Shown here: piece by piece, positions 1-32,866 of the stretch
How the letters are laid out: each line of letters opens with the position of its first letter
How positions within the stretch are numbered: the stretch's first letter is position 1
Source of the DNA: Spirochaetaceae bacterium
GTDB taxonomy: Bacteria; Spirochaetota; Spirochaetia; DSM-2461
NCBI GenBank assembly: GCA_051531975.1
Contig: JAOPTT010000016.1
Coordinates: forward strand, 1-64,000
Direction: 5' to 3'
DNA length: 64,000 nucleotides
Notes under the pieces: model-generated
The model's input: only the letters and a program-made list of their open reading frames with translations
The model's database searches: none
What the model was told of the DNA's origin: nothing
Made by a program: the position numbers and the translations under genes

Positions 1-524
1 TTATCTTCGAATATTTAAACTAAGCATTAAGATAGTCAAACATTTTCTAGTCGAGAAGTGGGCTAAACATTCTTTGATCAAGAAGTTTAGTGTTAGGGTT
101 ATTAAACTAGACTTTTTTATTTATAATGTCTTTCTAGAATCAATCAACATCATATTATTAATCCACTAACTCCGTACCATCGTTGCCATAGGTGTTATCT
201 TCGAATATTTAAACTAAACTTTAAGATAGTCAAACATTTTCAACAGAAAAGTTTGATGTTAGTGGGAGAGTAGGCCCAAGGCAAACAGCAATACGTATAT
301 AAGCCACCCTATAGGTTTGGTTTTTGTATTTATAAACTGAAGTTACCATATTAATACGTATCACATGATATAATTTATCTTATAATAATATACTTCTACT
401 AAAAATTGACTAAATAATATTAGATTAAGGGTCAGATAAACTATCTTTAATCAAAAAGTAGAGTTAACTTATATTTTTTTGGGTATATTAAAGGTATTTT
501 TTGTACTGCTTCTAGAATTAATCA
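1..524 (+). repeat. Degenerate ~190-bp-period non-coding repeat with conserved hairpins (truncated at left edge)
   Basis: 1-47 vs 195-241 are 45/47 identical. TTCTAGAAT(C/T)AATCA occurs at 132-146 and 510-524. A hairpin recurs at 63-90 and 230-256 with compensatory changes. No ORF >=60 aa. Confidence 0.75.
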
Positions 525-640
525 TGCAAAACTTCACAACAAACTAAATATCATTATCATCAGTAGTTTATATCAAGTATTTTTATATAAAAATATCACA
601 TAAATTAAATTCATAATGGTGTAATCAAGAAGCTATTTAT

Positions 641-841
641 TTAGTAATGTGGTGGAGGTGTATTATCTATTGGTTCTTTAATATTCTCTTCAAGTAGTGA
701 TATTTTCTCTTTAAATACACGATGAGACTCAATTAATTGTTCGATTTTTTTATCTTGTTTTATCACAATTGCATTTAATTGCCCAATATAATCTTCTAAG
801 TAGCTTATTTTAATCTCTAATTGTAAAAGTTCATCATTCAT
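641..841 (-). CDS. slyX: SlyX family protein
   Basis: 66 aa coiled coil (LEIKISYLED...QLN) ending in the SlyX signature PPPHY. Confidence 0.9.
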   Translation of the reverse strand: MNDELLQLEIKISYLEDYIGQLNAIVIKQDKKIEQLIESHRVFKEKISLLEENIKEPIDNTPPPHY

Positions 842-870
842 TCTTAGTTTATATCAGAAAATTGACTTTA

Positions 871-899
871 TTGACAGAACAAGCACAATTTTATATCTT
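871..899 (+). promoter_or_regulatory. Sigma70-type promoter, probably leaderless transcript of the TrpR-like gene
   Basis: TTGACA(871-876)-N17-TATCTT(894-899); ATG 6 nt downstream; no SD. Confidence 0.55.
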
Positions 900-905
900 T
901 AACAT

Positions 906-1202
906 ATGACAGATGAAATGAATCAAACAGCACTATTAGAATTATCAACTACTTTATCAAAAATAGACGATATTGAATTATTACAAGAATTCTTAAAATG
1001 TTTACTAACAGATAGTGAAATTAGTGAAGTTATGTCTAGATGGACACTAGTTAGAAGAATAAAAAATGGACAAACCCAGCGTAGTATAGCTGCAGAACTA
1101 GGATTGAGCCTATGTAAAATTACACGTGGTTCAAAAGAATTAAAAAAAGAAGATTCAGCTTTTAATAAAGTTATAGAAATCTTTGATGAGTCTGTTAATT
1201 AA
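906..1202 (+). CDS. TrpR/YerC-YecD family transcriptional regulator
   Basis: LLTDSEISEVMSRW...QRSIAAELGLSLCKITRGSKELK matches the Trp-repressor HTH pattern. Confidence 0.85.
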   Translation: MTDEMNQTALLELSTTLSKIDDIELLQEFLKCLLTDSEISEVMSRWTLVRRIKNGQTQRSIAAELGLSLCKITRGSKELKKEDSAFNKVIEIFDESVN

Positions 1203-2973
1203 AATATAACATACCACTATTTTGGGCAAATAATAAAAAATCATTATCAATACTATTATCAATTTGTGAACAATTTAGATTACCATCAATTTTATTTATG
1301 AAATTCATAATCTGTTTTGGATAACATTCAAAAATTACATCCCCACCATTATTAAACCAGGCAATAGCTTTAGATTTCTTTGGCTTAGATATTTTTTTTA
1401 TTGAAGATATTTCATAATAACCTTCATCAAATAGATCAAGAATAGGATAATTAAAATTTATATAACTTGCAGTGTTTGATAGTGTGGGGACTAAATTCTT
1501 CAAAGATAATTTTGCCTCTGTAGTTATATTTTTTTCTCCAAGTAGTGCTTTAGAATAAGAAGCGTGATAATTGATAATATCTTCAATCAAAGTTAAATTT
1601 TTTGGTTTATATTGAAACGATATAAACTTTTTAATTATTTCAACTTCATTTCCAACTTTTTTAGAACTATTATTATACCATTTTATAAACGTCTCAATAA
1701 AATCTATAGACGTAACATTTAATTCCTTAGTAACTTGCACAAACCATGCTGTACTTTTAGCTTTATTATAAATAAAATCGCATGCTTCTTTAAGATCATG
1801 AGATTTATTCATATCTTCTGCGGTATATGTATCTGATGTTAAAACAGTGTAAGGTGTAGAATCTAAATATTTAAGTTTCAATTTTTTAGCGTTATCCCAC
1901 AATGTTGTACCTGGAAGAACTGCTAAAGGGAATATATCTATATGGTTTGGTTGTAAAGATAATACATATTCCATACTATCTTTAAAACCTTTATAATTAT
2001 CACCTGGAAGTCCATAGATTAGGTCTAAGCCAAATATTGAACCACTATCATTTAGTAAACTAATTTTGTTAGTAAAAAGCTTCTTATTTAGTCTTCTATT
2101 AACTAGTTTTAGAATATCATCATGAGCACTTTGTATCCCAATTTGTAAAGATGCACCTATATCAGTAAACAATTGACAGATTTCATTGTCAAGAAATTCA
2201 GCACGTACTTCAAAATGAAAGTGGATATCAGTTTTTTTATCTTTAATAATTTTTAATATCTTTTTTGCCCTACTTAAATCTTTATTAAATGTAGGGTCTA
2301 GTACAAAAACTTGAGGAACTTTATTTTTAATTATAACATTTAATTCTTTTGAAATTCTTTCTAAAGAGTAATAACGAACACCTGCAAGTCCTCTGGATTC
2401 AAAACAAAAATCACAACTAAATGGACAGCCTCTTGATAATTCCCACAAATAACCATCATATTTAGTTAAGTCTAAATTTTTTGTTAAAATAGGCGAAGGT
2501 ATTATATTTAAATCTTTAATGTATCTAGTTTTATCATCATTAATGCCATCAATTTTAGTACAATCTGTCCCATCTAATAGAGATGAAATAAATTCTGAGA
2601 ATACTTCTTCACCTTCACCCTGAATAGTATAATCAATACCAAAATCAATTAAATTAGAGTAACTTGATCTAACTTCTGGACCACCTGCAACAATAATAAT
2701 ATTAGGATAAACTTTTTTTAACTCTTTACAAAGATTTATATAAAATTCTTTGTTCCATAAATAAATAGAAAACCCAATCAGATCGACTTTATACTTTGAA
2801 ATTGTATTTAAAACCTTATTTAATGTGTCATCAATAGTAAATTCTTCAATTGATATATTAAAATCGTCTAATTTGTTATTATATTTTTCAATATAAGATT
2901 TTAAAAGGGCAGGTGCCAGTGGTATAGCATCTGGAGTATTAGATATGTGTACGGATGTTAAAACAATATTCAA
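1195..2973 (-). CDS. B12-binding domain radical SAM protein
   Basis: N-terminal cobalamin-binding-like domain (GFSIYLWN, AGGPEV, GEGE); SRGCPFSCDFC CxxxCxxC motif; TTG start with AGGAG. Confidence 0.9.
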   Translation of the reverse strand: MNIVLTSVHISNTPDAIPLAPALLKSYIEKYNNKLDDFNISIEEFTIDDTLNKVLNTISKYKVDLIGFSIYLWNKEFYINLCKELKKVYPNIIIVAGGPEVRSSYSNLIDFGIDYTIQGEGEEVFSEFISSLLDGTDCTKIDGINDDKTRYIKDLNIIPSPILTKNLDLTKYDGYLWELSRGCPFSCDFCFESRGLAGVRYYSLERISKELNVIIKNKVPQVFVLDPTFNKDLSRAKKILKIIKDKKTDIHFHFEVRAEFLDNEICQLFTDIGASLQIGIQSAHDDILKLVNRRLNKKLFTNKISLLNDSGSIFGLDLIYGLPGDNYKGFKDSMEYVLSLQPNHIDIFPLAVLPGTTLWDNAKKLKLKYLDSTPYTVLTSDTYTAEDMNKSHDLKEACDFIYNKAKSTAWFVQVTKELNVTSIDFIETFIKWYNNSSKKVGNEVEIIKKFISFQYKPKNLTLIEDIINYHASYSKALLGEKNITTEAKLSLKNLVPTLSNTASYINFNYPILDLFDEGYYEISSIKKISKPKKSKAIAWFNNGGDVIFECYPKQIMNFINKIDGNLNCSQIDNSIDNDFLLFAQNSGMLYFN

Positions 2974-3047
2974 AGTTACTCCTATCGTTTGTTAACAAAA
3001 TAGTATAAGATAAATACATTTATTGCCAGTTAAATAGGGAGAATATA

Positions 3048-25083: not shown

Positions 25084-25111
25084 ATTTTTCTATCTCTTTT
25101 AATATAATTTA

Positions 25112-25283
25112 CCCAAAATGCCGTCCAGCAATTTATTCTCTTGAACTCTTTTGTTCAAGTGGGCTTCCTATATACACATCCTGTTTCACTATAAATAGTT
25201 AACAATTCAGTAATAAAGAGTAGGAATCCCTTAGATTAGTTTTGTAGAAAGAGAATATTACTGTACAAACGAACATCCCAGGC
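25112..25283 (-). ncRNA. ssrS: 6S RNA
   Basis: Directly downstream of zapA. Ends pair (CCUGGGAUGUUCGU / ACGGCAUUUUGGG) and it has the CUUGAAC-AAAAGA-GUUCAAG central-bubble hairpin; ~170 nt. Confidence 0.85.
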
Positions 25284-25288
25284 AGTTA

Positions 25289-32622: not shown

Positions 32623-32706
32623 GCCGAAGTGGTGAAATTGGTAGACACAAGGGATTTAAAATCCCTCGGGCCTCGGCCTGTACCGGTTCAAGTCCGGTCT
32701 TCGGTA
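32623..32706 (+). tRNA. tRNA-Leu(UAA)
   Basis: Acceptor GCCGAAG/CTTCGGT-A; anticodon arm AGGGA-TTTAAAA-TCCCT; long variable arm; GGTTCAAGTCC; CCA not encoded. Confidence 0.97.
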
Positions 32707-32782: not shown

Positions 32783-32866
32783 GCCGAAGTGGTGAAATTG
32801 GTAGACACAAGGGATTTAAAATCCCTCGGGCTTCGGCCTGTACCGGTTCAAGTCCGGTCTTCGGTA
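32783..32866 (+). tRNA. tRNA-Leu(UAA), second copy
   Basis: Identical to copy 1 except one C/T change in the variable arm. Confidence 0.97.

Follow-up and report, generated by a model that had tools for sequence, protein, structure and literature searches.

Repeats at the start of a Spirochaetaceae contig are very probably tandem remnants of the 5S rRNA gene at the end of an unassembled rRNA operon

Tandem intrinsic terminators behind rRNA operons are a textbook system. Remnants of the 5S rRNA gene in the same position were described by Stepanov and Fox (RNA 2021, PMC7812874). The accessible portion of that paper reports 5S-like sequences in Peptococcaceae and Pseudoalteromonadaceae in which one or both terminal parts are missing and large insertions are present, and it places multi-copy 5S remnants of this kind at the distal ends of rrn operons in phyla other than the one considered here. 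Our literature search returned no report on such arrays beyond that paper and none for this kind of organism.

Here, we analyzed a window, by which we mean the whole stretch of 64,000 nucleotides studied (positions 1–64000 of contig C16, beginning at the contig start), from an assembly of 29 contigs (G000). The window opens with an array of repeats that fits the remnants in the accessible portion of PMC7812874 in position, copy number, missing termini, and insertions. As in those remnants, the arrays stand at the distal end of the operon, behind a normal 5S gene (seen directly in a near-complete relative of the same genus, G001, and inferred for the window), the units occur in multiple copies, perhaps associated with terminator-like elements, terminal parts of the 5S gene are missing, and the 5S-like core holds insertions. 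They differ from what that portion of the paper describes in their lineage and low G+C content (about 30–33%) and in being far more decayed, with only a 3' segment and an inverted copy clearly 5S. The inverted 5S fragment here makes a long-range stem, the family of the inserted hairpin is also found by tRNA genes and in the 16S-23S spacer, and no expanded functional 5S gene was seen here. The arrays share with tandem rrn terminators a run of hairpins with U-tracts after the last rRNA gene and a canonical terminator that closes the run; in contrast to those terminators, the hairpins are long, imperfect, and partly 5S-derived, they are absent in the short forms of the unit, and a terminating role for them is putative.

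An earlier note, written from the sequence of the window alone, had described non-coding repeats recurring about every 190 nt, and this description is borne out. A direct repeat of 47 nt (1–47 and 195–241) shares 45 of 47 nt (96%) at a distance of 194 nt, and a second repeat of 22 nt (38–59 and 65–86) is 77% identical. The region 1–345 is A+T-rich and contains no convincing ORF. The parts of the array and the two genes that follow it are listed below, with the arms named as in the four-way junction discussed afterward.

1–126, plus strand: unit 1, its 5' end cut by the contig start; it contains arm b (1–35), a copy of arm c with the outer stem open (36–62), an intact arm c (63–90), and GTTAGGG (92–98), which marks the short form, in which the 5S 3' piece has been deleted, and it ends in CTAGAC (107–112, the operon-type 5S 3' end), a T-run (113–118), and the trailer ATTTATAA up to 126
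127–161, plus strand: variable leader or spacer of unit 2, the least conserved part across 11 aligned units
163–182, plus strand: reverse-complement copy of the 5S segment CGATGGTACTGCGTTAGTGG, forming the 5' strand of the closing stem
183–229, plus strand: arm a (weak) and arm b, which has a 21-nt loop; this stretch may represent the 5' and loop-C part of a 5S copy in decayed form, an assignment that is statistically unsupported
230–256, plus strand: arm c, a hairpin of 11 bp in which one A is bulged
258–274, plus strand: direct copy of the 5S 3' segment GTTAGTGGGAGAGTAGG, whose first 9 nt form the 3' strand of the closing stem
275–299, plus strand: truncated remnant of the long-form 3' hairpin (CCCAAGGCAAA...), which is followed in sister units by CTAGAC and the T-run
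300–330, plus strand: array-closing intrinsic terminator in a weakened copy (hairpin about 303–320, T-run 321–325)
641–841, minus strand: 66-aa gene used as a synteny anchor, presumably SlyX-like
906–1202, plus strand: 98-aa gene used as a synteny anchor, which we take to be TrpR-like

Farther along, the window carries a 6S RNA gene (25106–25287, minus strand, 54.1 bits) and two tRNA genes of equal score on the plus strand (32623–32706 and 32783–32866), 160 nt apart.

The four-way junction that the note had drawn for 162–266 is the minimum-energy structure of that segment, composed of a closing stem, the weak arm a, arm b, and arm c. On the plus strand it folds at -23.7 kcal/mol (z = -3.4), and none of 200 dinucleotide shuffles was equally stable. 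The minus strand folds comparably (-24.8 kcal/mol, z = -2.5), so the argument from G-U pairs for the plus strand is indecisive. Plus is likely the transcribed strand. The duplication of arm c in the first unit was also read correctly, with the outer stem open in the copy at 36–62 and the copy at 63–90 intact with swapped base pairs. Two further observations did not hold up. A third, decayed unit had been placed at 340–470; the best local alignment of 346–640 to a unit scores 26, a value that 86 of 500 shuffles and 23 of 500 random segments of the genome also attain. The recurrence of TTCTAGAATYAATCA is likewise not beyond chance.

Searches for known elements were negative over the regions scanned. 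The Rfam scan of 1–3000 gave nothing relevant, and ARAGORN reported neither tRNA nor tmRNA over the same positions. With the Rfam 15 covariance models, 1–345 gave only three chance-level snoRNA matches (E 6.9–9.8, 11–13 bits), and no match reached the gathering thresholds within 1–524. Tandem Repeats Finder did not report the array at the window start, as the contig encloses fewer than two copies of the unit. A small ORF running across the units was considered and rejected, as the open frame at 2–169 is not maintained among the unit variants.

The setting of the array was examined by a BLAST search of all contig ends of the assembly, which found it at 6 of 58: the left ends of C16, C22, and C27 and the right ends of C17, C21, and C1. 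All six arrays have one orientation, with the units outermost, then a conserved terminator, and then unique DNA. In the one DNA run that covers the window, the summed contig depth is 47–1453 over 1–300 compared with 33.3 over the unique part; such depth is no copy number, and the raised value is consistent with many copies. No RNA run matched positions 1–1300, and a small metatranscriptome from the same sample yielded no contigs, a result that is uninformative as to expression. Neither a 16S nor a 23S rRNA gene was found in the G000 assembly, and its sole 5S gene is an orphan (C22:5737–5845, 92.4 bits) that stands alone behind a protein gene. This orphan is preceded by a promoter-like TTGACT-17-TTTAAT, and its helix-I ends read GTCAG...CTGGCT compared with GTCTAG...CTAGAC in operon-type genes; an equivalent copy is present in each of G001 and G002.

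The relative G001, assembled into two contigs, contains seven 16S, seven 23S, and eight 5S genes, that is, seven operons and an orphan 5S. Tandem units (one to four, about 190–215 nt each) directly follow the operon 5S gene in six of the seven operons, and the seventh lacks them. At the end of each unit stand the final 25–30 nt or so of a real 5S gene, in some cases interrupted by an inserted hairpin, and then the 5S trailer. The 13-mer GTGGGAGAGTAGG, present in the window at C16:262–274, occurs 21 times in G001, with 8 occurrences in true 5S genes and 13 in units, where the spacing is 187–260 nt. The operon at G001:C1:2984738–2990030 (L032) is followed by counterparts of the window genes at 641–841 and 906–1202: the 66-aa protein is identical at 38 of 67 positions there and at 42 of 64 in G003 (L035), and the 98-aa protein at 68 of 95 in G001 and 64 of 99 in G003, directly after the 5S gene and units. 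The same two neighbors stand on a G003 contig that begins inside a 5S gene. An rRNA operon upstream of the window, which is not in the assembly, is inferred from this synteny, the relative's operons, the location of the array where a contig begins, and the lack of rRNA genes noted above. Given the operon tails of G001 and the synteny, the array at the window start would be an rRNA operon tail that the assembler did not cross. The earlier note had expected further units and a partner gene to the left, an expectation that is probably right.

Beyond these two genomes, the array fades. G003 has short remnants after the 5S gene and G002 none, and other genera of the family have an ordinary terminator in that position. 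In a BLAST search of 41 genomes with the unit, matches were found in G000 and G001, and G038 matched over only 32 nt of the terminator region; in G001, the alignment to the 219-nt query covers only 56–60 nt. A pattern for the junction of arm c and 5S gave no match in the contigs of a wider set of genomes, from which records of this genome or near-identical ones were possibly left out. Two other arrangements after 5S genes were observed on the side, both in other genera of the family. In G010 (L044, C1:1–1500), a second copy of the 5S 3' end with its trailer lies about 220 nt downstream, and in G004 (L043, C1:1743400–1744800, reversed), seven tandem repeats of 50 nt follow the 5S terminator.

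The units were compared with the genome's own 5S gene (C22:5737–5845). Positions 258–274 match it on the plus strand at 17 of 17 nt, and 163–182 match an adjacent, overlapping 5S segment on the minus strand at 18 of 20 nt (score 30). A sister unit matches at 16 of 17 nt on the plus strand (score 29) and 18 of 19 on the minus strand. The scores of these matches (29–34) compare with a mean of about 16.9, an sd of about 2.5, and maxima of 26–29 in 200 shuffles. For 163–182, the 200 shuffles had a mean of 16.8, an sd of 2.4, and a maximum of 29, so the observed score is only 1 above the highest; the plus-strand score of the sister unit also clears its highest shuffle narrowly (within 3). Since both strands match one 5S segment, the closing stem TCCACTAAC/GTTAGTGGG consists of the two arms of an inverted duplication of that segment. 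The 3' end of the unit reads CTAGAC, T6–8, and ATTTATAA; in G001 and G003, the operon-type 5S gene ends in CTAGAC, and the trailer TTTTTTATTTATAACGATTCCGAC... behind the orphan 5S continues exactly as the trailer behind the last unit of three arrays.

For the unit as a whole, a family 5S covariance model was built from 12 true 5S genes and run with filters off over 20.7 kb. All six G001 operon 5S genes in the searched loci were detected at 126 bits. Two identical G001 units of type B scored 13.1 bits (E about 0.09) in an end-to-end alignment, and the window unit (185–283) scored only 5.9 bits (E about 8.6). No unit was reported by the Rfam 5S model RF00001 (family threshold 38 bits) at E <= 10, its only match in G000 being the orphan gene. 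The two ends of the unit are thus firmly of 5S origin; for whole units such an origin is plausible in G001, and for arms a and b in the window it is unproven. The units have in common with the operon 5S genes of the genus GTTAGTGGGAGAGTAGG, the terminal CTAGAC, and the trailer; in contrast to 5S rRNA, they are no 5S rRNA genes, as the 5' helix-I strand and helices I–III in general are unrecognizable. Two insertions interrupt the 5S parts: arm c (27–29 nt) before GTTAGTGGG and a hairpin of 26–37 nt in place of the TGATCG part of the 5S 3' end.

Eleven complete or partial units at the six contig ends of G000 align well and fall into coexisting variants. Long-form units carry GTTAGTGGGA(G/T)AGTAGG and a hairpin (CCCAAGGCAAA/TTTGCGTTGGG) ahead of CTAGAC. 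Short-form units, five of the eleven with window unit 1 among them, have lost about 37 nt between GTTAG and GTTGG. Some units, again including unit 1 of the window, carry arm c twice with the outer stem of the first copy open, and the complete counterpart of this double-arm-c unit is at C22:108–301. The array of the window closes with unit 2, which breaks off after 274 and runs into the weakened array terminator; 258–300 shows no significant fold (z = 0.04). This terminator copy is 81–83% identical to the array ends on C17, C27, and C1 and folds at -7.4 kcal/mol (z = -1.4), compared with -13.4 kcal/mol (z = -3.8) for the copy on C22.

Seven complete G000 units allowed the four-way junction to be evaluated pair by pair. 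The proposed structure pairs in 91.9% of cells, almost all of which is invariance. Four of the six pairs in arm b never vary, departures in arm a only break pairs, and one pair of the closing stem is unpaired in 4 of 7 units because the short forms place A opposite G. Double changes are confined to arm c, save for one sequence at the outermost pair of the closing stem. In G001, arms a and b are not conserved, and the partner of GTTAG is absent from the type-B units. The note's proposal that the structure is under selection therefore stands for arm c and is unsupported for the whole junction, where no meaningful covariation was found in the closing stem or arms a and b. It had predicted an upstream CCCTAAC-like partner for GTTAGGG; the partner in sister copies reads CACTAAC and stands about 24–33 nt before the TTATCTT block.

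The compensatory changes reported for arm c hold genome-wide. In 25 distinct copies from G000 and G001 (7 with the outer stem open), 7 of 11 pairs are double-changed, and 90.2% of cells pair. None of 500 shuffles matched the covariation score, the percentage paired, or the number of double-changed cells; the counts of covarying pairs and of pair types were reached by 4 and 21 of 500 shuffles, and slid controls were all far lower. These copies are paralogous, so they are not independent events. A strict pattern for the hairpin had 10 matches in G000, 8 in G001, and none in the other 36 of 38 family genomes, with no match for the reversed control. A looser pattern gave a high control count (35 against 19), so the strict pattern was relied on. 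Arm c is near-identical between the two species, whose neighboring proteins are about 57–72% identical.

Arm c is also tied to stable-RNA loci outside the operon tails. With another looser pattern, 21 matches were found in G001, all but two inside rRNA operons. The copies in the trailer units have the same orientation as in the window, those in the 16S-23S spacers of five operons are reversed and lie right after an apparent decayed tRNA, and one copy lies upstream of a 16S gene. In one such spacer (G001:C1:3366740–3366820, L019), an apparent decayed tRNA T-arm (GGTTCGATTCCAG) is directly followed by the reversed arm c. In G000, arm c directly follows tRNA genes at C13:114581–114606 (L050) and C25:14570–14591 (L051), and at C2:122085–122110 (L049), it lies about 100 nt past a tRNA-like match; at these loci it is reversed relative to the copies in the rRNA tails. 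The C13 copy sits within a tRNA-tRNA-[hairpin]-tRNA-SRP RNA cluster. Six tandem copies of 27 nt occur at C2:161947–162103 (L048). At this locus and at C16:88784–88948, past the 64 kb of the window, tandem copies of 26–27 nt comprise the 5' arm and inner stem (GGGACAAACATTTTC..GAAAAGT); the outer stem is closed in the last copy alone, and a canonical terminator comes next. The C16 tandem encloses a run of N.

Unit fragments with arm c once or twice and GTTAGGGATAGCA were also observed in intergenic DNA at C2:530124–530320 (L052), 487600–487782 (L046), and 482380–482532 (L047). Each of the three is followed by a common motif, TAGAGTATARCCC, and two of the regions are about 700 bp long and distant from any assembled rRNA gene; none of these loci had an Rfam match at E <= 0.01. 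Arm c resembles REP/BIME elements as a short imperfect palindrome that is dispersed, occurs in both orientations, and is sometimes tandem. It differs from them in having only about 10–25 copies, confined to stable-RNA loci, and no RAYT/Y1 transposase. Judged by its base changes, arm c is a separate small hairpin element that is genuinely constrained, and it is the sole part of the unit that shows evidence of selection for pairing; its role as a termination or processing signal is putative.

Taken together, these data indicate that positions 1 to about 330 of the window are very probably the distal tail of an rRNA operon in the form of a tandem array of 5S gene remnants, with the 16S, 23S, and 5S genes left of the contig start and unassembled. 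The repeats at the window start are probably not a new RNA gene family. Each unit (about 165–205 nt) would be a decayed and rearranged partial copy of the 5S gene with its T-rich trailer, in the order inverted 5S helix IV/V segment, variable middle, arm-c hairpin, direct GTTAGTGGGAGAGTAGG, CTAGAC, and the trailer T6–8 ATTTATAA; the short forms would have lost the direct 5S 3' segment by deletion. Units may multiply and shrink through unequal recombination or slippage between the repeated modules of 5S 3' end and trailer, and gene conversion may hold them alike among operons. They would be co-transcribed with the rRNA from the plus strand up to the terminator at about 303–325. The four-way junction would be largely a by-product, its closing stem representing the arms of the inverted 5S duplication. 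Most likely, no sequence-specific RNA function attaches to the array itself; should it have a role, the best candidate would be a run of weak, repeated terminator-like or processing structures behind the rRNA genes. Several observations count against this explanation of the array: the operon itself is absent from the assembly, the Rfam 5S model does not detect the units and the family model scores the window unit low, simple decay does not predict the covariation of arm c and its near-identity between two species, and the unit architecture is common to both species.

Of the alternatives, the one with the best, if limited, chance of being right is that the array is a functional fail-safe termination region, in which the hairpin and U-run of each unit stop part of the antitermination-modified RNA polymerase. 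GTTAGTG would pair either with the upstream CACTAAC, closing the junction, or with the downstream ...CTAGAC, forming a long hairpin 2–3 nt before the U-run. rRNA operons often end in more than one terminator, which agrees with this proposal. Every unit ends in T5–8, and in long-form 3' modules, GTTAGTGGGA.AGTAG pairs across the inserted hairpin with ...TTATTAAACTAGAC, so that the extended hairpin ends 2–3 nt before the T-run. Four such modules fold at -22.9, -22.9, -18.6, and -18.0 kcal/mol (z = -2.4, -3.3, -0.7, and -2.4 against mononucleotide shuffles), and one module, evaluated against dinucleotide shuffles, folds at -23.5 kcal/mol (z = -3.6). G001 units of type A form similar extended hairpins with an unrelated inner hairpin. 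The remnants in the accessible portion of PMC7812874 are also each preceded by a putative terminator. Against fail-safe termination, a terminator consensus scan found no site in window 1–1000 or in a G001 array, the five short-form units lack the 3' hairpin, the four of them with an assignable fold leaving 1–12 nt unpaired before the T-run, and the number of copies varies from 0 to 4 across the G001 operons.

A hairpin of another kind was observed behind arrays and the orphan 5S, where 2–4 repeats of CGATTCC-GACAAAAGGA-GGGATCG with GGA-containing loops lie on both sides of the terminator (right end of C17, 544–620 of the reversed end; C27:273–470; right end of C1; C22:5860–5890). It is absent from the window's own array. 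We take these loops to recall CsrA/RsmA-binding sRNAs.

A more specific proposal, which we consider speculative and rather unlikely, is that the units are not inert and that 5S parts and arm c form a lineage-specific cassette acting in cis on the rRNA transcript. GTTAGTG would switch between the upstream inverted 5S piece and the downstream CTAGAC, the latter giving a terminator-like hairpin before the U-run, and arm c would be a new recognition or processing signal of the stable-RNA operons of the genus.

More doubtful still is a reading of the units as genes for a new small RNA of 5S derivation, or for processed 3'-trailer RNAs, with a functional four-way junction, which corresponds to the tandem ncRNAs of the earlier note. 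The fold of 162–266 is significant, arm c covaries, and the order of modules is kept in two species despite an unalignable middle, all of which would agree with such genes. They are opposed by the lack of covariation outside arm c and the mismatched closing stem, by the loss of arms a and b and of the GTTAG partner in the relative, and by the presence of long, short, and double-arm-c variants side by side. Promoter-like sites in the units show no excess (12 compared with 8.0 ± 2.9 in shuffled sequences), and the array is confined to one genus in the 38 genomes scanned for the hairpin and the 41 searched by BLAST.

Recombination or mobile-element sites of the integron attC, REP/BIME, or IS200/IS605 type are very improbable: imperfect palindromes in a GTTAG.../...CTAAC frame, dispersed partial copies (C2:530124–191, 487707–782, and 482480–532), and the two orientations of arm c relative to transcription would suit them, but full units always lie in rRNA operon tails in a single orientation and are demonstrably 5S-derived, and Y1_Tnp (PF01797) had no match in G000 or the near-complete G001, with the control positive in 6 of 14 reference genomes. 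That result rules against REP/RAYT elements and IS200/IS605 ends and leaves the HUH transposase suggested by the note as a partner without a candidate in either genome. attC sites were rejected because there are no cassettes, no ORF lying between the units in the ORF list of the window, and because the GTTAG/CTAAC frame, which we take to fit the attC core-site pattern only partly, is explained by 5S homology.

The array is thus real and was correctly described by the earlier note, and it was wrongly classed as a novel ncRNA, riboswitch, or transposon-end array, as the units derive from the 5S gene and trailer at rRNA operon ends. No Rfam family matches it; nevertheless, the note's own proviso that the array might be real without being novel largely applies, through the phenomenon reported in the accessible portion of PMC7812874.

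Read as an operon tail of 5S remnants, the array explains assembly breaks at six places and places the missing rRNA operons. It also carries the caution that repeats at contig ends, even when they are structured and covary, can be debris of rRNA operons rather than new RNA genes. The published 5S remnants are extended to another lineage, with an inverted 5S fragment and an expansion into arrays. Arm c, tied as it is to rRNA and tRNA loci, offers a testable lead on how stable-RNA transcripts of this genus may be ended or processed.
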